From: a virus
Strand: one strand, 5' to 3'
Length of the DNA: 64,000 nt
IMG/VR virus record: IMGVR_UViG_3300045391_006990
Coordinates: 47,272 to 111,271 of that record
The notes below the pieces were generated by a model. It saw nothing but the letters and a program-made list of their open reading frames with translations. It ran no database searches and was not told where the DNA came from. Of this stretch, positions 2,835-56,637 are shown piece by piece. Within the stretch, counting starts at the first letter, position 1. Each line of letters opens with the position of its first letter. The translations under genes and the position numbers were made by a program.

Positions 2835-3545
2835 TCACCACGGAGGGCTGAAGATTCCAAGACGATCTGCATCGCCTGGCTTCATCACGGTGACGAGATC
2901 ACCGACACGCGGGTAAGGCCTCCGCCTGGCCATTTCGTTGGTCCACTGACCCCAGGGCGTAAAGCTTTCGATCTCCGGCTCGTAGAAGTCCCAGTCGGTA
3001 CCGTCCTTAGCGGCGACGCGCCCCATCGACACGAACAGCGTCCAGCACTTCTGCCCTGGCAAGAGCTCGACCCGGTGGTACGAGTTGCGCTTCAGGTAGT
3101 TCACGTTCCCTGGCAGGAAGAGCCTAGACGTAGCCAGGTCGTGCGTGAAGCTCCAGCGGTGCTCGAGGTAGCCGCCAACGAGGATGAGGCTGAAGGCGCG
3201 CTGCCAGGGATGGTTGTGGTACGCCCGGTCGTCGTCACCCCGAAAGAAGTAGTGCAGGTACGGCCGTGGCGTAAACCTGGTTAGGGCGGCGTACGCTGGC
3301 GGCACGCCGAGGCCGCGCAGCTGCCCCTCGATGTCCTCGCGCGCCGGCGTCAGGTACACCCGCATCAGGTAGGGATCGGCCAGCACCTTCTCGTTGGTCG
3401 TGATGATGCGGGTCTGCTCGAAGGGGCTGGCTTCTGCCAGGTCCCACAAATTCTCTTCCATGGCGCCGAAGGGACGCAGGCGCCGTTCCTCGGCGCGGCA
3501 GTCGATCACGAAACGACGAACATCTTCACGGCTATGATTTTCCAT
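2835..3545 (-). CDS. cupin-like phage protein
   Basis: YLHYF..DDDRAYHNHPW..SLILVGGYLEH...YHRVEL...WTLF, a cupin-type His/Glu metal motif. Confidence 0.65.
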   Translation of the reverse strand: MENHSREDVRRFVIDCRAEERRLRPFGAMEENLWDLAEASPFEQTRIITTNEKVLADPYLMRVYLTPAREDIEGQLRGLGVPPAYAALTRFTPRPYLHYFFRGDDDRAYHNHPWQRAFSLILVGGYLEHRWSFTHDLATSRLFLPGNVNYLKRNSYHRVELLPGQKCWTLFVSMGRVAAKDGTDWDFYEPEIESFTPWGQWTNEMARRRPYPRVGDLVTVMKPGDADRLGIFSPPW

Positions 3546-36200: not shown

Positions 36201-36256
36201 GACCGTACAATCTTCTCGACGGCGTCCTGCACTTCTTGGTCGGTGTAGTTGCTCAT
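33242..36256 (-). CDS. large putative virion structural protein (1004 aa)
   Basis: Helical termini flanking a long Thr/Val/Gly-rich beta region with GDxxxI..G.N.G repeats. Confidence 0.6.
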   Translation of the reverse strand: MSNYTDQEVQDAVEKIVRSSVRHPTGILGERKIDVSFSDIQEAAAGCFILYFNAPFYVLKLGVKRLQDALDSQAQTIASLIDAVEATDRLTTPITDISLLANARSALEELEAAVSSRDQGFSDISKVPAYRRYVQNLDGFLGATGSNIRKTGADGSATIVDTPSGARGKIPGLVRQLVDQQNELIRRVKLLAGAIDDFASLNLPRIAAQGVISRARDVLDSHYNDLAALDENSRLDNLRAVTLDLLTQRPLVTKYGAATAPSEFITTSGLATAYADTQHLAVPAVRESSSSGPYPILAANQLIRFTLDGGTPFDFPLPLSYVAELLGTLQEPFAITADSNAMRIVFGQLDTGGATFDIPLTIGTRSAQQIVTEVNAGLGASSLRMQKRFVPLRYSGPVTTTSLGGNNARFTILAGDLNALGVVVGDDLDVVAGTNAGTTWGITAVDPLGQYVDTAGVAPVVPASDDSIETGPAARALQLVDTDELGSVVQRRAIRLPRTDGVQDLTHAILGFFPGIEVRSRPVSAQAVVDNITGSTAALSAKVVFHPFEYVGSARSEPTDPTRVVLSKLVCDGLLGTGGTNIALAVAVPDSVQLGDRVVIRSSLTPTDIGVEGSINTIASGVLGVTFPVPVTDGAISIEVGPDVTFGFGDVLIISDGPNQGHYYIGEDQLVKTTASFELVIESSLPVFKDGNKSIGFNVEFGSEDVSFVSRDTTLVSAITVDNAGTSHGADYFLDPIDVGVPIKGFTKFIRFDTFPAGVTVGDLVQFYVGSYNVVDVEQEVVSIDSTLQVLELSAAVASTFSLTFDFGVPNPFGRIRIAQVANYTELKDGSTTWLGQSPQQELFFRNLARALNPIVTNANPTPSMINDATNLLEDMAASLTELGAVFDLYEAPAVEPVDVMLSTFRQKGADRAIDLLLEGQFSTFFNLNVDGVSYSGTLMSGMRDLAREDLPIRKFNRRDTAGQKLIGAQPDDKDFEFSSDDADSPMQPDIPMAPDVASPGENL

Positions 36257-36528
36257 TTGCTGGGGTCTTTCTCGAGGCTGAAGCGTGCGGTAGGCACCTT
36301 GTACTTACCAAAAACGTCTGGGTGAAATTGGTTGGGCTGCAACCCACTTTGCAGGGCATTCTCCATGTCCTGCGCCATCTCGTCCTCGTAGGCTTTGGTC
36401 TTGATGCAGCGGACGCAGCTGACCAGGGTGTGGTCGGTGGTGCTTCGCATGAACCCGCGGTCTCGAGTCGCACCACAGACCGCGGCATTGTCCCCGTGTT
36501 TGAACCTCCAATGCATCACGTGGCTCAT
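36253..36528 (-). CDS. Zn-finger plus AxxMExAL tag protein
   Basis: H..VCG..VSCVRC..EMAQDMENAL. Confidence 0.65.
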   Translation of the reverse strand: MSHVMHWRFKHGDNAAVCGATRDRGFMRSTTDHTLVSCVRCIKTKAYEDEMAQDMENALQSGLQPNQFHPDVFGKYKVPTARFSLEKDPSK

Positions 36529-37642
36529 GTAGTGGGGTCTTTCTCAGGCATATCGATGCCGCTGAAGTATCTACGGATGGCCACGTCCAGGTCGAGGAAG
36601 GGGCCGTGATTTTCGCCCTGTTCGCCCAGCTCTTCCCACCAGACGATGATGGCGTACTCGGTGGTCTTCAGGAGGTGGCCACGCCACTCGAGGCGCCAGC
36701 CATGGGCGCGGGTGAGGTGAAGCTGCTGGTTGCGGGCGCCGATGCACCATGTAGCGGCTGCCTCGACATCGGGGAAGAGCAGGACGGTGTGCTCGACGCG
36801 TACGGCGCGCCAGGCTTTGGGCTCACCGGTCTCGGTCAGGGTGAAGACAGTTGTGCCGGGCACCAGGTCGATGATCTCCCAGTAATTGCCACGTGTGGGT
36901 TGGATGATGGCGCTCATGTACTTGCCTTTGCTGCTGCGCGTAGGAGCTCCACTTCACGGGGCGTGAAGGGGCCGTTGCCCGAGTGTTTGATGCAGGTTTC
37001 TACGGCCGTGACCAGGCTTTCCTCTTCGCCATGGACCAGGAGCTGCTTGGCCACATTGAGCTCGTGCTGTAGGAGGGAGGGGAGGGGTTGGGCAGGTGCT
37101 GTTCGCGGGCGCCGAAAAGTCATGTAGGGGGTGCTTTCCCTGAGCCTCGGCACCTAGCGCAGACGCCGTTGAACTGGGAGGGTATCGGACTTCTTGAGCC
37201 TGAGCCATGGCAGCTTTCGCACAGCTTGGGCTGGGTCAGGATGCGCATGACTTCTTGGTAGGTTTTGTCCTGCACAGCGAGGACGGGGTGCTCATGCTGG
37301 TCGAGGATGTAGACGATGTCGAACAGCTGCTTGGTGGTGAAGGGGGCCTTGGCTTGGAGCACGGTGGCCAGGGTGGTGAGGAAGTCGGGATGAACGCTGT
37401 TGGCTGGCGCCGAAGGTTCATTTTCTGGGTGGAGCGGGGTGCTCATGTATTGGTGACTTTCGTTGGGGTCTGAGGCAGAGAGAACACGAGGGAGCCAGGC
37501 TGGATGTGCTTACCGTCGACGGCGAGCTTAGCCGAAGAAGTGAGCTCGGTGCGCAGCCTGTGTTGGAGGATGAGCCAGCTGTGGCGCTCGGTGGCGTGAT
37601 TGGGGAATTTGTCGAGGGTGAAGGCAGGTAGGCGGTGCGGGA

Positions 37643-37915
37643 TCATGTTGGTCGAGCCTTCCTTGGCAGGTTCACCACTTTTTTGAGCGCGAGGGCTAGG
37701 CTGTTGTTTCGGAAAGTAGATGGCATCCTAAAATCTGTCAGCTTGGGCGCATCAGGGGTCAGAGCATCTTCCATCTTCTGAGCGATTCGGTCCTCGTGCG
37801 TGATGTTGGGTGTGAAGGGTTTCCCGTCGTAGGTGCGGCACACACCTTCGTGGCTGTGTTCCAAGTAGCAGCGTTTTTTGTAATTTGGCAGCACGAGCCT
37901 GTTCATACAACGCAT
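37643..37915 (-). CDS. AxxMExAL tag protein
   Basis: C..CYLEHSHEG.C..RIAQKMEDAL. Confidence 0.6.
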   Translation of the reverse strand: MRCMNRLVLPNYKKRCYLEHSHEGVCRTYDGKPFTPNITHEDRIAQKMEDALTPDAPKLTDFRMPSTFRNNSLALALKKVVNLPRKARPT

Positions 37916-37919
37916 GGCT

Positions 37920-38156
37920 TCAACCTAGTTTTGGCAGCAGCGCGATGCACGCAGGGCACGAGACGTTCTCGTCGTCGAAGGTGTAGAGCGGGGTCTTGTC
38001 GGAGAGGGGCGTGCCCTTCGACCAGTCAGCTCGGTACACGCCTTCAGGCAAGCCCTCTGGCTGCGCGTAGACGTAGTACTCCTTGTTCTGACAGAGGATG
38101 GTTACGTAGGGCTGCGAGGAGCTGTGGCAGGCGTGAACGACTTGCTCGGTGTTCAT
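37920..38156 (-). CDS. Zn-finger protein without the tag
   Basis: H..LC..VSCPAC. Confidence 0.55.
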   Translation of the reverse strand: MNTEQVVHACHSSSQPYVTILCQNKEYYVYAQPEGLPEGVYRADWSKGTPLSDKTPLYTFDDENVSCPACIALLPKLG

Positions 38157-38362
38157 GTGGTTGCTGCTTTCTGTAGTGCATGTTCCATGATTTCAGCGCG
38201 CTCGTCTCGGTACCGAGCAGTGCGCATGCAGCTCTTGCACGTCACCCAGTCGGCAAGCGAGGTCCACTGCACACGGCCTTCAGGGTCTTTGGTATTGCAT
38301 ACCTGCATGCGCTTACCGCAAGCTGTGGTGCGGTTCATGCCAAGGAAGAGGTGGACAGACAT
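38153..38362 (-). CDS. Zn-finger plus AxxMExAL tag protein
   Basis: H..TACG..VTCKSC..RAEIMEHAL. Confidence 0.65.
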   Translation of the reverse strand: MSVHLFLGMNRTTACGKRMQVCNTKDPEGRVQWTSLADWVTCKSCMRTARYRDERAEIMEHALQKAATT

Positions 38363-38637
38363 AGCTTCACGATCTTTTCGGTCAGCTCGTCGGTAAAGGC
38401 CCTGAAGCTGGCGACGGTACTGGGCGTGGTGAGCGACTCTTCCATCCGCTGGGCTTGGCACTCATCTGAGATCAGGCAGGCTTCGCAGTCCACGATGTCC
38501 AAGCTGCTAGAGAGGCGCGCGTCGTCGGGCAATTCACGTACCAGCTTGCCGCAGCCTGTACGAAACGGCATGTGCTGCTTGGGCGTGGGGAGCCAGTAAT
38601 GAATCACGATGAGCTGGTCGTTTTCGTCGACGTTCAT
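38335..38637 (-). CDS. Zn-finger plus AxxMExAL tag protein
   Basis: H..TGCG..VDCEAC..QAQRMEESL. Confidence 0.65.
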   Translation of the reverse strand: MNVDENDQLIVIHYWLPTPKQHMPFRTGCGKLVRELPDDARLSSSLDIVDCEACLISDECQAQRMEESLTTPSTVASFRAFTDELTEKIVKLCLSTSSLA

Positions 38638-39098
38638 GTGGTGCCTATCAGTAGCTGCCGTTGTGCGGATGGATTCCACTTCATGTGCTGCCCGGGCGGG
38701 AGGGTGAACTGCAGGATGATGAAGCCGTCAGCGCGCTTGACCATGTACTTGCGGTTCGCAAAGGACTCGTTGTACACGGTGAACTCTTCGATGCGCTCGC
38801 CAGCCGCCCACACGCGGTACACGCTTCCCGTCTCATCGACCAGCGTGGCAGCAGGGGCTTGGAGCGCTTCCTCCATCGCCTGTGCCTTACACTCGTCGGA
38901 CCTGAGGCAGGCGGGGCAGTCCACTTCCTTGAGCTTGCTGGTGAGCGAAGCGGGCTGCCGTAAGTCGTAGAAGCCAAGGCCGCAGGCTGTGTGCACGGGC
39001 CCACGCCTTTCGACGTAGTAGTGGTGCGCGGTAGGGAGCACACGAGTAGTGAATGAGCGGGCTGCCTCCGCAATCTTTTCTTTTAGCTCAGCGCTCAT
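38634..39098 (-). CDS. Zn-finger plus AxxMExAL tag protein
   Basis: H..TACG..VDCPAC..KAQAMEEAL and a C-terminal extension. Confidence 0.65.
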   Translation of the reverse strand: MSAELKEKIAEAARSFTTRVLPTAHHYYVERRGPVHTACGLGFYDLRQPASLTSKLKEVDCPACLRSDECKAQAMEEALQAPAATLVDETGSVYRVWAAGERIEEFTVYNESFANRKYMVKRADGFIILQFTLPPGQHMKWNPSAQRQLLIGTT

Positions 39099-39342
39099 AC
39101 ATGTCCGTACCGAACATCGACACGACGCCCTCGGTTGCTTGCCGGATGTTCGATTTGATGAGGGCACGCTCCATGCCCGTGGCCAGGTACTCGTCCGAGC
39201 ACAGGCAGCCAGGGCACGTTACTTCCTTGAGGCTGTTGGTGCCGCATACGCCGGGTTCAGTGCCCAGGGGTTGGCCGCAGGCTGGGATGTAGTTGGCACC
39301 GCGGGTGACATAGCAGACGGGCATGCGTACCTCCTGCAGCAT
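39088..39342 (-). CDS. Zn-finger plus AxxMExAL tag protein
   Basis: C..PACG..VTCPGC..LATGMERAL. Confidence 0.65.
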   Translation of the reverse strand: MLQEVRMPVCYVTRGANYIPACGQPLGTEPGVCGTNSLKEVTCPGCLCSDEYLATGMERALIKSNIRQATEGVVSMFGTDMYER

Positions 39343-39659
39343 TACGTAATCTCCAGCTTCTTCAGGTACTCGGCAGAGACCATGAGCTTGCTGAATTCCT
39401 TCTCGAGAAGTTCATTTGGATACAGTACATTCATGAAATCACCTGCCTCCACACCACGGTTGACGAAGTCAGGCTCGCGCAGCGAATCCTCCATGGATTG
39501 AGCCAAGGCATCGAGGTACTGGGCGGACTCGAGGCAGCTCTCGCAGTTGATGCGCTCGACCCAGCGCGTGGCGTACATATCGTGGGTGATGCGCACGCCA
39601 CATCCCGTACGCTTGCTGTCACCGTTCTTGGCGAAGTGGGAGGTGCCCTCGAACTTCAT
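39342..39659 (-). CDS. Zn-finger plus AxxMExAL tag protein
   Basis: H..TGCG..INCESC..LAQSMEDSL. Confidence 0.65.
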   Translation of the reverse strand: MKFEGTSHFAKNGDSKRTGCGVRITHDMYATRWVERINCESCLESAQYLDALAQSMEDSLREPDFVNRGVEAGDFMNVLYPNELLEKEFSKLMVSAEYLKKLEIT

Positions 39660-40012
39660 GGACCACCACCTTCCGCTGTGATCGCCAGCTTGCGTACGAC
39701 ACCATCCGAGCTCATCACGCAGATTTCGTCTGTAGTCGTGTCCATCCACAGAAAGCAACCGCTGACAGGTGCAGTGGTTGGGGCGCCCGGCAGCCAGGTA
39801 TTCGAGCTCGCGGGCAGCGGGATGGTAGGCGCGCTCTTGCCGGAGATGGTGAACACATCCGTGCGCAGCGCATCTTCCATGGACTGCGCGACGCCTTCGA
39901 GGCACGTGACACAATCCACCTCGTAGGGTGCGCTGCTGCAGAAGTCAGCCTTCACCTGACTCAAGCCGCAGAAGGTGCGCGCTCTACCTGGAGGGACGTA
40001 GCAAGTAATCAT
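39656..40012 (-). CDS. Zn-finger plus AxxMExAL tag protein with tail-fibre-like C-terminus
   Basis: C..TFCG..VDCVTC..VAQSMEDAL; AGGAG SD. Confidence 0.65.
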   Translation of the reverse strand: MITCYVPPGRARTFCGLSQVKADFCSSAPYEVDCVTCLEGVAQSMEDALRTDVFTISGKSAPTIPLPASSNTWLPGAPTTAPVSGCFLWMDTTTDEICVMSSDGVVRKLAITAEGGGP

Positions 40013-44183: not shown

Positions 44184-44592
44184 TTGAGATCGAAACCTTT
44201 TTCAGCTCGATTATTGGGGTAATGCCAGCGGAGATGTGTAGGTGCTGCTTGAGCTCCGCTTCAAGCAGTACGCTACCGTCTAGGATTAGTTGAACCTTCG
44301 ACAAGATCGCTGACCCCCCTATACACGCAGGGAAGCAGATGGGTCTTACGGTACTGAGAAGTCCGTGGGCGACAGCCCATTGATTCGTGTCACGCGCGAG
44401 GGAAACCCGCGCATAACCAGCGTAGGTCACCTCATTCCCGTCAATATCCAGAAGGCTTGCTGTCATCCCTGTAGTAGGAGTCAGCGCAGCTTCCATGCGT
44501 GCGGCAGCTAAATCACACTCACGCTTTTGCTTAAGTAACGACTCAACCAACTTCCACTGGTGCTTGGCCCACCGAACCGAATTCCTCTTCAT
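44176..44592 (-). CDS. AxxMExAL tag protein carrying a tail-fibre-like domain
   Basis: AAARMEAAL then NEVTYAGYARVSL..W..ICFP pattern. Confidence 0.6.
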   Translation of the reverse strand: MKRNSVRWAKHQWKLVESLLKQKRECDLAAARMEAALTPTTGMTASLLDIDGNEVTYAGYARVSLARDTNQWAVAHGLLSTVRPICFPACIGGSAILSKVQLILDGSVLLEAELKQHLHISAGITPIIELKKVSISIE

Positions 44593-45182
44593 GGTCTGCG
44601 CAGCCGTCCTAGCCCGTAAGCCGGGCCTGTGCCATTGATCTTGCCTCCAATCAATTTAAGGGGAGGTCCGCCGTAGACTGCCGCGAATGATGCGATCTTT
44701 GCGGCGGCGCGCGCTACATCCGCGCTTATGCCATCGGCAACCACCTTCTCGAACACCTGCTCGATGTCGTCCGGCAGCTCATCGCCGTAGCTGCTGAGCA
44801 CCAAGGCCGTGTTTGCTTTGGATTCGCCAAACGCTTGCTCGAGCACGCGCCGCTCGAGCTCAGCGTAGTCCGTACGCGCCAATGGGTCGTCAACGATGAC
44901 GAGCGTACCTGGACCTCCAAGCCGTTGTGGCGTCGGCAGGCCACGCGAAGCGTACCTGTGCTCCAAGGCCATATCTTGAAGCTGGGCGTAGAAGTCGTCG
45001 AGGCGTGGGATGTACTGCAAGTTCGGCTGTGATGAACCTCTGCGCCCAGTGATTGGGCCCAGAGTTTCGAGGTCGAACGCCACCGGATCGAAGCTGAGCG
45101 CCGCCTCCATTGCGTGTGCCTGCGCATCTTCGTACGCCTTGTTGCGCCGTTGATTGCGGGTAAGTCGCTTCTGCCTACGCAT
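44589..45182 (-). CDS. AxxMExAL tag protein that is a mosaic of family A DNA polymerase motifs
   Basis: QAHAMEAAL; VAFDLET; TGRRGSSQPNLQYIPR; DYAELERRVL; RAAAKIASFAAVYGG. Confidence 0.65.
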   Translation of the reverse strand: MRRQKRLTRNQRRNKAYEDAQAHAMEAALSFDPVAFDLETLGPITGRRGSSQPNLQYIPRLDDFYAQLQDMALEHRYASRGLPTPQRLGGPGTLVIVDDPLARTDYAELERRVLEQAFGESKANTALVLSSYGDELPDDIEQVFEKVVADGISADVARAAAKIASFAAVYGGPPLKLIGGKINGTGPAYGLGRLRRP

Positions 45183-45381
45183 TCTTCCTCCTAGCCTTCA
45201 CCCGCTTGGCGTCTTCGAAGCAGGCACGAGCCTCGTCCTTGGATTTACCGGTGGCTCGCATCCAAATCTCCATCAGCGTGGACTCTCCGCTGAGTGCTTC
45301 TTCCATGTCCCGCGCTTGCTCATCAACCGAGGCGGCTCTTTGGTCCCTTGTGCTTGGGTCGGACGACAGGGGTTGTGTCAT
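45175..45381 (-). CDS. AxxMExAL tag protein
   Basis: DEQARDMEEAL; GAGGT SD. Confidence 0.6.
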   Translation of the reverse strand: MTQPLSSDPSTRDQRAASVDEQARDMEEALSGESTLMEIWMRATGKSKDEARACFEDAKRVKARRKNA

Positions 45382-46597: not shown

Positions 46598-47476
46598 TCA
46601 CTCAAGCTTTGGCTTCTCCTTTCTTGCTGGCACACGGAAGGTCACGCCCTTGATGAACGTGGGGTCGTTGGCATCGTTGGCGAACTCGATGTCCTCGGTC
46701 GAGTCTTTGCCCACGCGCGTTGTGGTCTTGGTGAAGATGCCACAGCGCCCGCACTCCCAACTCTTCTTGTGAATGAACGGGATGTCGTCGCTGAACAGGG
46801 CTTCGAGCTCAGCCTCAGTCATTGGCTGCGTGAAGTCCTTGATCACCTGCGTCTGCTCTTCACTGTCCTTGCTTTCGCTCCAGCCGTTACAGCGAGGGCA
46901 GTACATGCCTTCAGCCTTGAACGTACCAGCGATCTGCGCCTCGAACTGACTGAGGTCGGTCATGTCGTAGCGCCGTACGATTTCAGCCTTGGGCATCCTG
47001 CGTATTTGCTCGGCAGTGGTAACGAAGATGAGCTTGGCGCGCAGGGAGGCGTAACGCACCTCGTGCTCGTTGACCAAGAAGTCGACGGTCTCACCAGCCC
47101 TTTCCGAGGCCCAGGCGCAGGCGGCATCGATAGCGCGCTCGAGGTGCTCGTTGGCCACGGCGGTGGCGTCGAAGTCTTCGAGCTCGTCATCAGTAGGCGC
47201 ATGCCCTACCGCTTGCTCGACGAGCCAACGTGGGGCGTCGGCGAAGCCCATGAACCTAGGGCTGCTCAGAAAGCGCACTGCCCTCACGTACGACTTGCGC
47301 AAGAGCTTCGTGTACGAGTCGTCGTCCTCACCACCCTTGGGCCTGGTGCCGATGCAGAGCGGAAAGCGCGAGCAGCCAAAGAAGCTGCCTTTGGCGCCGT
47401 GCCGCTCCATCATGGGCACGCCGCATTCAGGGCAGCGCACGTGCGGAAGCAGCACGCGCTGCTTGAACTTACCCAT
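46598..47476 (-). CDS. protein with topoisomerase-type C4 zinc ribbon
   Basis: CPECGVPMMERHGAKGSFFGCSRFPLC.GT; GGAGGAG SD. Confidence 0.7.
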   Translation of the reverse strand: MGKFKQRVLLPHVRCPECGVPMMERHGAKGSFFGCSRFPLCIGTRPKGGEDDDSYTKLLRKSYVRAVRFLSSPRFMGFADAPRWLVEQAVGHAPTDDELEDFDATAVANEHLERAIDAACAWASERAGETVDFLVNEHEVRYASLRAKLIFVTTAEQIRRMPKAEIVRRYDMTDLSQFEAQIAGTFKAEGMYCPRCNGWSESKDSEEQTQVIKDFTQPMTEAELEALFSDDIPFIHKKSWECGRCGIFTKTTTRVGKDSTEDIEFANDANDPTFIKGVTFRVPARKEKPKLE

Positions 47477-47485
47477 CTCTCCTCC

Positions 47486-47869
47486 CTAGCAATCTTCGTT
47501 GACGAGCACACCGCACTCGTCGCAATGGCGGTCGAGCGCTTCCTTGGTGTTACTCCAGAGCGTCATCATGTAGCCACTCAAGTAGCTGAGCCGCGGGTAG
47601 TTGGTAGCCACTGGCTCGTTCTTGAGCGCGCTTTCCATCGCCGGGGCGATTGTGTTGATGCGATGACAACGCCAACACAGGACGCAGCCGTGACTGAAGG
47701 TGTAGCCGATGATCCACGCTGCAGTAGAAAGCACTCCGCCCCATCGAATCTCTCCACAGCCAGTGCATTCCCAGCCACTGTGGTATCGAGGGGGCGGATG
47801 TACTTCCAGGCAAGGTGCCTGGGTCTTGCAATTCGGACAGCGCTGAACCGGCTTGACTTGCCGACTCAT
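47486..47869 (-). CDS. Cys-rich protein with AxxMExAL tag
   Basis: Four CxxC pairs; IAPAMESAL. Confidence 0.55.
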   Translation of the reverse strand: MSRQVKPVQRCPNCKTQAPCLEVHPPPRYHSGWECTGCGEIRWGGVLSTAAWIIGYTFSHGCVLCWRCHRINTIAPAMESALKNEPVATNYPRLSYLSGYMMTLWSNTKEALDRHCDECGVLVNEDC

Positions 47870-48888
47870 GAACTGGTCGGAGGCACGACGCGTTCTTCCT
47901 CGATTTCGATAGCGCGTTGTACTTGCTGCGTGGGCAGACCCTGCGGCAGCTTGAACGCGTCGAATTGCTCGAGAAGCTGCACGCAAGGCAGCAGCTCTTG
48001 GTAGAGCTCTACGGCCTTGGTGTGATCGCCACGCGCTTTCGCCTCGGTTGCCCCGTCCTGGAGCCTTATGGCCACCGCCATCAGGTCGTCGAGAAGAATG
48101 TACCCACCCCGGTAAGGGATGAGTCCTCGCCCAGAAGCTCCAACGTGATCGAGCATGCAATCAGAATTAGCCATGCAACGCCTACCAATACTTTCAGTGC
48201 GTCCGTCATTCGAGCCTTTCTTCCGCACCGTTGAAGCCAGGCTCGCCCGTAATGGGGAACCTCACTCCGACGAGTCGTCTTCTTGTAGCTGCGCGCCTAG
48301 CACCACTTTGGGCAGCGCAGGAGCCCGCAAAGCATCGGGCGGTACCGCCATTTCAGGCGGCGGGTTTGAAGAGATGGGCGATAGAGGCGGGGATGGCCAG
48401 GTTGGGTGGTCCTCTGGCGGCTCCGGGGCTGGCTGCCCAACCAGCGTCTTGTCGTCCTCTTCATTCAGTTGGTTCATCGATCCCGTTGACTTGGTACTGC
48501 TCGGCCATCTCCGAAGCTTGCCGCATCAATTCCTTGGCAGCCGCGTGGCCCATGATGATGCGGTAGTTGCCCACCACTGCCTTCAGCACGAGGCGAAGCG
48601 CAGCAAGCTGTACGAGTGTCGAATCCACTTCGCCGGCGATGATTTCTGTCAGCTCGGACTTCAGCTTGCTCGCGAGTATCAGCACCCGATCTTCGGGAAC
48701 GTCTTCGAGCGCCTGCTTGCGCTGCCACTGCGGTGGCTTCGGGTCGAGAACATCTCCCATCGCGGTTCTTATACCTCCGACGTCCGAGAGTATTACGCCC
48801 GCCCGTTCGAGCAACGTGAAGGAATGTCCAGTGGTGCATCGAGCGCGAGGGATCAGTGTGCCCCCACCGGCAAACGAAAGGGAAGATC

Positions 48889-55299: not shown

Positions 55300-56283
55300 T
55301 TACTTCTTGTCGACCTTGGGTACGTACTTCGCGTGCTCTGCTGCGAAGTACTCAGCCGTCTTCGCATTGGCGTAGTCGAGCTTGAACACTTCAGGGGCAA
55401 ACGGGTCAGTGTCGCTCGTTGCGAAGACTTGAAAAAGCTCATCTACTTCGCGTTTCGACATTCCGATGTTCAGCATGCCTGCTTTTGTGGCTATTGAAGT
55501 AGCTCGCGGTTCCAACGCGCCACTACTGTCGAAGATGAGATGGCGTAACAGCTGCATCTCCATGCGGCTGAATGTCTTCGATTGGTACTTGTAGTCGACG
55601 AAGGCCTCGAAAGCATTCGGCGCCACGACGTTGCAGATACCTGCTTTCACCCGCGCCGTCTCTTGGATCTCCCACTGCGCATGCTTGTCGACGCGCAGCT
55701 TCAAGAAGTCGAGGCAGTTCTTGAGGTCGATCTTCCAGTACCACTCGGTGTAGAGCGAGAGCGGTAGGTGCAGCCGAGCAAGCTCGCGTGCCAAGTCTAT
55801 GCCTTCCCCGACGCACAACTCATAGAGCGCGGCCGCTTCTTCCTGCAGGTGCTTCCACTTGTAGCGAATGCGTTCGCCGACCACTACGTCGATGGGCTCC
55901 GCTCGCCCTTGGCGGTTCTTCTTACTCTGCGAGCCCATGTGCTCGAGCTCTGGCATGTAGAACTGCATCGACGGTAACGAATACCTTAGTGAGTACTCAT
56001 TCACGCTGGCCGTACGATGGCGGATTAGCTGCCTTGCCACGAAGATGGGCAGGCGCACGTGGAACTTGAGCTCCACCATTTCGAAGGGTGACGTGTGGGT
56101 ATGCCGCATCATGTAGCGCAGCAAGCCACGATCATCACTCGGTGTTTTGGTACCTGCACCGTAGCTGGTGCGCGCCGCCTGCACAATGGCAGCGTCGTCA
56201 CCCATGTAGTCCACCAAGGCCACGAAGCCGTGATCGAGGACAGGGAAGTACTTGCCAACTAGTTCGTCTGCTTCTTGAGTCAT
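55300..56283 (-). CDS. thyX: flavin-dependent thymidylate synthase
   Basis: AARTSYG, HTSPFE, PIFVARQLIRHRTASVNEYSLRYS, ARELAR..LP, LRVDKHAQWEI. Confidence 0.95.
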   Translation of the reverse strand: MTQEADELVGKYFPVLDHGFVALVDYMGDDAAIVQAARTSYGAGTKTPSDDRGLLRYMMRHTHTSPFEMVELKFHVRLPIFVARQLIRHRTASVNEYSLRYSLPSMQFYMPELEHMGSQSKKNRQGRAEPIDVVVGERIRYKWKHLQEEAAALYELCVGEGIDLARELARLHLPLSLYTEWYWKIDLKNCLDFLKLRVDKHAQWEIQETARVKAGICNVVAPNAFEAFVDYKYQSKTFSRMEMQLLRHLIFDSSGALEPRATSIATKAGMLNIGMSKREVDELFQVFATSDTDPFAPEVFKLDYANAKTAEYFAAEHAKYVPKVDKK

Positions 56284-56637
56284 TTCTTCACCAGGTCTTT
56301 CGTCAATTCGTCTTTCAAGTAAATGTCGGTGTGGTTCCACTGCGACTCGAGCGAGCTCCACTGAACAGAGAAACGCCCTACGTCTTCGCTGTCGGATGGG
56401 CTGCGTTGTGTACCAACCAGGATGATGGTGCCTCGCGCCACCTGTACCTGGTTCACGTCTTCGTCCAGCAGTGCGCCTTCGAGCTCCTCGAGCATCTCGC
56501 ACGAGAGCGGCATCTTGCCCGTGCACTCAGGAGGCTGCGAGCAGACCTTGTCCGGTACTGGAGAGGTCCGCCCGCACATCTTGCACACGAAGAGCTGCTT
56601 GCCGCTCGGCGAGGTTGCGTACAGCTCAACCCACCTG

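Follow-up and report, generated by a model that had tools for sequence, protein, structure and literature searches.

Family A DNA polymerases (PolA; Pfam PF00476), represented by E. coli Pol I with its Klenow fragment and by T7 gp5, are built on a core of more than 550 amino acids that combines polymerase and exonuclease. In the active site of these enzymes, using the numbering of E. coli Pol I, R668 touches the 3′ end of the primer, D705 and E710 are the catalytic-metal and sugar-gate residues, and R754, K758, F762 and Y766 contact the incoming deoxynucleoside triphosphate (dNTP). Polymerase homologues can also be kept once catalysis has been lost, as in bacterial ImuB, a catalytically dead polymerase homologue that is used as an adaptor and in which the whole Y-family fold is retained. 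In some T7-like cyanophages, PolA itself is split into an exonuclease gene and a polymerase gene that together make up the whole enzyme (Czernecki et al. 2023, PMC10201439). That survey describes only exonuclease/polymerase splits and excluded sequences of fewer than 350 amino acids, so that a family of much shorter PolA-derived proteins would have escaped it. Here, we describe a protein of this kind, P0001, encoded by a 197-amino-acid open reading frame (ORF) on the minus strand at positions 44589–45182 of a 64,000-nucleotide stretch of phage DNA (the window), which corresponds to positions 47272–111271 of the 111,271-bp IMG/VR virus record IMGVR_UViG_3300045391_006990 (referred to below as G000; 60% GC; CheckV completeness estimate 58%). 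We found no description in the literature of a stand-alone family of ~170–235 amino acids derived from the PolA active-site core, the surveys having excluded short sequences.

When compared with E. coli Pol I and T7 gp5, P0001 shares the TGR...PNLQ hairpin, motif A and the O-helix motif B, but it covers only about 140 amino acids of the PolA core, is without the exonuclease domain, the thumb and motif C, and adds a foreign arginine-rich N-terminus together with a short helix, here called the tag, which recurs in neighbouring genes. Like the split cyanophage genes, it is a PolA-derived phage ORF of less than full length; unlike them, it has no complementary piece in the 111-kb contig, and G000 already possesses a complete PolA. 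The parallel with ImuB would be that both are polymerase-derived proteins that lost catalysis and were retained for a non-catalytic role, although P0001 is a fragment of an A-family fold and still has the acidic residues of motif A. An earlier reading of this DNA, made from the letters and a list of ORFs (the sequence-only reading), had described P0001 as a mosaic of PolA signature motifs fused to the tag. The ORF is present as that reading described it, on the minus strand and 197 amino acids long, and all of the strings quoted from it lie where they were placed, with the tag AHAMEAAL at residues 22–29, VAFDLET at 34–40, TGRRGSSQPNLQYIPR at 45–60, LVIVDDP at 94–100, DYAELERRVL at 105–114 and RAAAKIASFAAVYGG at 158–172.

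The relationship of P0001 to PolA was analysed using curated libraries, profile comparisons and shuffled controls. Pfam PF00476 matched P0001 with E=0.0055 and 16.1 bits, short of its gathering cut-off of 34.3 bits, and aligned residues 41–174 to profile positions 114–223 of 381. The same profile matched five of seven members of the P0001 family described below (best member E=0.0011), NCBIfam Pol I models matched three of nine members, and PHROG 17 (DNA polymerase) matched four of nine. When a profile of the family was compared with all solved structures, PolA chains gave the strongest matches, the best being 7r0k (E=2.3e-5). Using hhalign against a ten-sequence PolA alignment, composed of E. 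coli Pol I, T7 gp5, seven phage PolAs and the PolA that G000 itself encodes (the resident PolA), the family was aligned to E. coli residues 639–767 with Prob 96.5% and P=7.9e-10. P0001 scored 25.6 bits against a 60-sequence PolA hidden Markov model (HMM), a value reached by 0 of 300 shuffles; all 11 family members beat 299–300 of 300 composition-preserving shuffles in this test, with no shuffle matching ten of the members and a single one matching the other. Finally, in a search of the phage's own proteome, the resident PolA was the best match after P0001 itself. Taken together, these data bear out the relatedness to PolA that the sequence-only reading had asserted, and indicate that the likeness is genuine, though weak and remote.

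Within the PolA-like part of the protein (the payload), both hhalign and HMMER placed the TGR motif, motif A and motif B in native order and at near-native spacing, as one colinear block that corresponds to residues ~650–767 of E. coli Pol I (the alignment begins at ~639–650). The distance from TGR to motif A is 60 amino acids in P0001 as compared with 39–41 in E. coli Pol I and the resident PolA, while that from motif A to motif B is 53 amino acids as compared with 49 in E. coli Pol I. Since these spacings are near-native, and since the extra residues match an insertion found in the nearest PolA lineage, residues ~34–172 of P0001 very probably constitute one contiguous, strongly diverged PolA fragment that has been reused. 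In light of these alignments, two elements of the sequence-only reading have to be revised: hundreds of residues are not missing between the motifs, and the payload is a single colinear PolA segment rather than a minimised mosaic.

The fragment can be followed residue by residue along the minus strand. In the TGR...PNLQ..IP motif (45003–45050; residues 45–60), R47 is equivalent to R668 of E. coli Pol I. The segment between this motif and LVIVDDP (44904–45002; residues 61–93) includes the native IR..F element; when the stretch as far as motif A is added to it, the distance from TGR to motif A equals that seen in PolAs that bear the insertion. Motif A (DYAELERRVL, 44841–44870; residues 105–114) retains its catalytic Asp within DYAELERR (residues 105–112), with D105, E110 and R112 equivalent to D705, E710 and R712, and with D105 and E110 invariant in 11 of 11 family members. 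It is followed by the equivalent of finger helices L–N (44712–44840; residues 115–157), in which D134 corresponds to D732, 9 of 11 members retain G133, and the histidine of the DIH motif has been lost, L136 being aligned to H734. Motif B, or the O-helix (44667–44711; residues 158–172), conforms to the pattern RxxxKxxxFxxxYG through R158, K162, F166, Y170 and G171, which are equivalent to R754, K758, F762, Y766 and G767. The protein ends in a glycine-rich C-terminal tail (44592–44666; residues 173–197) that P0001 has in common with one relative only, P0009. Helices are predicted at residues 106–120, 122–131 and 138–169.

Two further strings had been assigned differently by the sequence-only reading, and neither assignment fared well. 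VAFDLET (45063–45083, minus strand; residues 34–40), which had been matched to the ExoI motif of the exonuclease domain, forms a strand before TGR. Although ExoI is the best match of the N-terminal 44 residues of P0001 taken alone, this match is weak (P=0.026 over nine columns), and only such an assignment would call for a large deletion. The nearest PolA lineage has a strand reading HTDLK, which lies at exactly the same distance before TGR as VAFDLET does in P0001 and is colinear with it, with 6 of 13 positions identical, so that no 300-residue deletion is needed to account for it. VAFDLET would most simply be the native β-strand that precedes the TGR hairpin, an ExoI origin being possible and unnecessary. 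Moreover, a DEDD 3′–5′ exonuclease would be marked by three motifs, of which P0001 has at most the ExoI-like string, with ExoII and ExoIII absent. LVIVDDP (44883–44903, minus strand; residues 94–100), a hydrophobic strand with an acidic end that reads IHDE or VDES in the relatives, had been likened to the Walker B motif of large terminases. However, no terminase family in Pfam or PHROGs matched at E up to 10, and P0001 did not show the Walker A and B motifs with profile match that identify a large terminase ATPase. The VIVDD strand, which lies before motif A, is only a generic look-alike of motif C.

Motif C itself (HDE, with the second catalytic Asp) is absent from P0001, in which nothing PolA-like follows motif B. 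Likewise, neither the thumb nor the 3′–5′ exonuclease domain is present, even as a vestige: the PolA match is limited to profile positions 114–223, and the 33 residues N-terminal to it consist of the arginine-rich stretch and the tag, whose profile has no counterpart in PolA. A PF00476 search of the 111-kb contig revealed no other PolA piece besides the complete resident PolA. Measured against an active PF00476 enzyme, P0001 possesses colinear homology and motifs A and B, and it falls short in gathering score, in motif C and in thumb and exonuclease domain. Lacking these last three parts, we infer, it would be unable to polymerise alone, as the sequence-only reading had anticipated in calling an active polymerase very unlikely. 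Nor would the phage need it as a polymerase, because the resident PolA holds all motifs.

P0001 belongs to a family of 11 members (ten relatives) of 167–235 amino acids with 21–52% identity, all of which are open frames on large phage contigs. Six of the relatives, P0002–P0007 (167–235 amino acids), were identified in an exhaustive phmmer search of 1.84 billion representatives, P0009 was added by a profile search, and P0008 is a cluster mate of P0004; P0002–P0009 come from Logan/ENA assemblies, on contigs of up to 203 kb. The remaining two were found using the resident PolA as a probe, which led to a clade of 160–195-kb phages in IMG/VR, two of which carry a P0001 homologue among the same neighbours. 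These are G001, a complete genome with terminal repeats whose PolA is 84% identical to the resident PolA, and G002, whose PolA is 64% identical to it; in both, the homologue is syntenic with P0001. The G002 homologue (L076:1426-2007, plus strand) is without FDxET, and after TGR it reads a motif B-like K..NFGL, then a post-motif-B-like helix and motif A (ADWSALETR). Directly after motif A it has an ExoIII-like string, Y-A-x-x-D-A-x-x-T-x-x-L-Y, which scored 15.5 bits against the PolA HMM. The public phage genomes of INPHARED contained no P0001 relatives; a word-based homologue search returned P0001 alone, and the same search of longer proteins returned nothing; pattern scans of IMG/VR and JGI with P0002, P0007 and alignments A1 and A2 gave no loci; and the ESM Atlas gave no usable match. 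Since 11 of 11 members are open frames at 21–52% identity, with the Asp and Glu of motif A invariant, random decay in the sense of the sequence-only reading is ruled out, and its view that the gene does not look like simple decay stands.

The PolA lineage to which the payload is closest is not that of the resident enzyme. The resident PolA, a complete protein of 686 amino acids with all motifs (contig positions 3496–5556), gave only motif-length matches in BLASTP and scored 12 bits with the family HMM, as compared with 36–39 bits for PolAs of 800–836 amino acids (L038, L041, L042, L047, L073 and L074), which are encoded by other large IMG/VR phages reached via the resident PolA. Because of these differences, the payload can be assigned to a PolA lineage other than the resident one. 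A recent duplication of the resident polA gene was considered and rejected on the BLASTP and HMM results. Thus, in the alignment with the phage's own polymerase that the sequence-only reading had proposed, the resemblance is confined to motif-length matches, and the nearest PolAs belong to other phages. When P0001 was compared with one of these, L073, by phmmer, residues 14–122 aligned to residues 484–592 with a score of 24.4 bits, giving 109 colinear residues with one 3-residue gap. The insertion between TGR and motif A has the same length and the same place in P0001 and in all six of these PolAs, and an LP..R...P pattern inside it is common to P0001 and L073. In the six PolAs, this insertion of ~20–25 amino acids contains Cys and Trp residues, and the strand before TGR reads HTDLK. 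These proteins, with their shared insertion and HTDLK-type strand, are the nearest full-length relatives of P0001 and are themselves complete replicative polymerases. In those records searched of phages with the 800–836-amino-acid type, the hits lay in PolA genes only, with no mini-protein, and the three carriers of the mini-protein, G000, G001 and G002, all have a PolA of the 686-amino-acid type. These comparisons indicate that the fragment was either acquired from another polymerase lineage or is what remains of one, and that it has since been retained.

The resident PolA lies in a replication module (G000:C1:17-9012) together with a DnaB-like helicase, a primase, a 403-amino-acid protein, a UvsX-like recombinase and a Cas4-like exonuclease; the P0001 gene is 87 kb away from it. 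The resident PolA is <30% identical to any PolA in 50,697 GenBank phage records, and the IMG/VR relatives of its phage, of 160–195 kb and some with terminal repeats, point to a little-known clade of large phages.

Taking identity and mode of action together, we lean towards the view that P0001 is a reused PolA fragment acting non-catalytically. Its mode of action can be proposed only tentatively: P0001 might bind primer ends or dNTP without catalysis, or act on an A-family polymerase as its competitor or regulator. In such a mechanism, a PolA fragment from a foreign lineage would have been placed behind an arginine-rich N-terminus and the tag helix, its retained active-site residues would occupy primer ends or bind nucleotide without catalysis, and the protein would in this way compete with or regulate an A-family polymerase, acting as one of an operon-like run of small tagged proteins. 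A binder or competitor is favoured because the residues that contact the primer end, the metal and the dNTP and that form the sugar gate are kept, because polymerisation would be impossible, and because an arginine-rich N-terminus has been added. Across the 11 members, D105, E110 and G46 are invariant and R47 and R112 nearly so, and the conservation of the payload fits a partial constraint centred on motif A.

Several observations weigh against this view, however. The best-conserved part of the family is N-terminal residues 1–33, the Arg/Lys-rich stretch and the tag, with a mean of 2.96 bits per column over the 11 members as compared with 2.24 for the payload, which suggests that the core function might be located there. 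Within the aligned payload, the 20 columns that are most conserved in PolA reach 2.63 bits as compared with 2.19 elsewhere (Spearman 0.19, p=0.04), implying that PolA signature columns are only modestly better conserved; both comparisons are also at odds with the idea, put forward by the sequence-only reading, that only conserved epitopes were kept. In addition, motif B is intact in only three of the 11 members (P0001, P0009 and P0002) and TGR is eroded in G001, the nearest sister genome, so that binding of DNA or dNTP may not hold family-wide. AlphaFold2 models were poor, with a predicted local distance difference test (pLDDT) of 45 and a predicted template modelling score (pTM) of 0.30 from the single sequence, and a pLDDT of 56 and pTM of 0.23 from a nine-sequence alignment, and as predictions they lend no structural support to a PolA fragment. 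Finally, an isolated palm-and-finger fragment would have an exposed hydrophobic surface and might adopt a different fold.

Other explanations have to be weighed against a reused fragment with a non-catalytic role. That an unrelated small protein resembles PolA motifs by chance is extremely improbable: although each single-library score lies under the curated cut-offs, the hhalign and shuffle tests, the rank of the resident PolA in the own-proteome search and the 109-residue colinear alignment to L073-type PolAs effectively refute it. A second possibility is that the motifs were truly rearranged, so that three acidic clusters would meet to form a minimal site for nucleotidyl transfer or metal, and P0001 would be a re-wired mini-palm with catalytic or metal-binding activity; its order would be an ExoI-like DxE, TGR, the post-motif-B helix, a motif C-like hhhHDE/DD, motif A and the O-helix. 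We consider both this activity and this order doubtful, despite a set of sub-profile matches that lie out of native order. The FDxET sub-profile mapped to ExoI in 38 of 50 PolAs (matched by 1 of 150 column shuffles), and that of the LVIVDDP strand mapped to motif C in 53 of 57 (0 of 150), while relatives have IHDE ahead of motif A. The helix that lies between TGR and motif A (F...YPGL..YF), which in several relatives resembles the PolA post-motif-B helix, mapped to the latter in 12 of 37 PolAs (matched in top-bin count by 4 of 150 shuffles, and in mean score by 1 of 150), and HMMER independently aligned the two helices in three members, with E about 0.02. The ExoIII-like string of the G002 homologue, with its 15.5 bits, could be added to this list. 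Yet the colinear reading explains most of the score, including, for P0001, even the insertion. Moreover, the out-of-order matches have negative or near-zero bit scores, the patterns hhhhD[DE] and hhDxE are generic, and the column-shuffle control is a lenient one, since a hydrophobic strand followed by an acidic residue is a generic pattern that column shuffling destroys.

The sequence-only reading had itself proposed a decoy or mimic, in which PolA signature surfaces would divert a host immune sensor of the phage polymerase, or a polymerase-binding factor. Such a role would be in keeping with the retention of several PolA hallmark residues in the absence of the rest of the enzyme, with the position of the gene in an array of small tagged genes typical of host-takeover regions, and with the weak tail-fibre likeness of a neighbouring payload (Gp80, E=0.022), which would fit a set of captured fragments. 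However, the kept residues are buried in the active site of PolA rather than forming surface epitopes, the subsets of motifs differ between members, the signature columns exceed the others in conservation by only a small margin, and no defence-related context was found, which makes a decoy improbable. A functionless remnant, that is, a piece of a replaced or foreign polymerase lying in frame behind a functional N-terminal module and slowly decaying, is unlikely too. Polymerase swapping occurs in phages (PMC11348598), and a remnant left by it would be expected to lie nearer to a non-resident PolA lineage, as P0001 does; the better conservation of the N-terminus, the loss of motif B and TGR in some members and a low G+C content at third codon positions (GC3; 0.68, under the 0.81–0.85 of core genes) are also as a decaying payload would have them. 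It is difficult to reconcile with slow decay, however, that 11 members at 21–52% identity all have open frames of 167–235 amino acids, that D105 and E110 never vary and G46 and R47 hardly do, that every member lies far above its shuffles in the comparison with PolA, and that 87 kb separate the gene from the replication module.

A Shine-Dalgarno site, AGGAGG (45187–45192, minus strand), read directly from the sequence, lies 4 nt 5′ of the ATG of P0001; its start overlaps the stop of the upstream gene (ATGCGTAG), and its stop (stop codon 44589–44591) overlaps the start of the downstream gene (ATGA), so that the ribosome-binding site and the coupling on both sides are as the sequence-only reading had them. 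GC at the three codon positions of P0001 is 0.68/0.47/0.68, with GC2 lowest, the same coding signature as in other phage genes, although GC3 is lower than in core genes, as noted above. No sigma-70-like promoter or convincing minus-strand terminator was seen between ~43.9 and 47.5 kb. Because of the Shine-Dalgarno site, the gene overlaps and the lack of an internal promoter or convincing terminator, the P0001 gene looks like one of several small genes in a polycistronic run.

The N-terminus of P0001 consists of an Arg/Lys-rich stretch (45138–45182, minus strand; residues 1–15), which is conserved in all relatives (alignments A3 and A4), and the tag helix (45096–45137, minus strand; residues 16–29), which ends in AxxMExAL and is shared with 16 neighbouring minus-strand ORFs. 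Counting P0001, 17 minus-strand ORFs between 36253 and 47647 contain AxxMEx[ASV]L, in most cases with [ED][DE]xx in front of it; outside this array the motif is absent from a crude gene set of the 111-kb contig in which some small ORFs were missed, composition predicting 0.1 occurrences. Since third codon positions vary, the tag is conserved at the peptide level. In about eight of the tagged ORFs (36253–40012 and 47486–48160, minus strand) the tag helix directly follows a [HC]xxC...CxxC zinc knuckle, whereas a basic N-terminus precedes it in P0001 and in the two neighbours downstream. Two of these ORFs, at 38335–38679 and 38634–39167, read CxxCLxSDEC, with a C-x2-C-x5-C spacing like that of WhiB-type proteins. 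The zinc-knuckle tagged ORFs matched nothing in Pfam at E up to 0.1, and the tag profile gave only chance matches to caspase-4 when compared with solved structures. A PolA origin of the tag helix was rejected, as no mapping to PolA was obtained with a profile built from the tags of the other 16 ORFs, and for the same reason tag and payload can be assigned separate origins. We also rejected the idea that the tag is a prohead-protease site shared with structural proteins, given the absence of the motif outside the array in the contig. The payloads of the tagged ORFs showed no significant paralogy to the phage's own proteins and are mutually unrelated.

The tagged ORF just downstream of P0001 (44176–44592, minus strand) gave a weak match to Pfam PF23140, Gp80, a podophage fibre protein (E=0.022; residues 51–123 aligned to profile positions 40–115 of 128), and is apparently absent from the syntenic array of the sister phage G001 (L075). 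A 292-amino-acid ORF at 46598–47476 (minus strand) carries a C4 zinc ribbon of the topoisomerase type at its N-terminus (PF01396, E=2e-9), along with more CxxC pairs, and a ThyX thymidylate synthase (PF02511, E=1e-48), extended by ~100 amino acids at its N-terminus, is encoded at 55300–56526 (minus strand). More speculatively, and rather unlikely in our estimation, the array as a whole might be a tag-plus-cargo system, in which the shared helix recruits or delivers fragments of conserved proteins of competing phages, with P0001 as a poison or decoy made from a rival PolA and directed at the polymerase class or its sensor; or P0001 might be a re-wired minimal palm that still binds metal and nucleotide and has acquired new catalysis.

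P0001 is the first payload of recognisable origin in this 17-gene tagged array, and it provides a handle on the role of the tag. Family A polymerases are among the best-studied enzymes. Should P0001 prove to bind nucleotides or the ends of primers, or to disturb A-family polymerases, it would constitute a natural minimal polymerase module or inhibitor; it would then also illustrate clearly how a phage can put to use part of an essential gene from another lineage.

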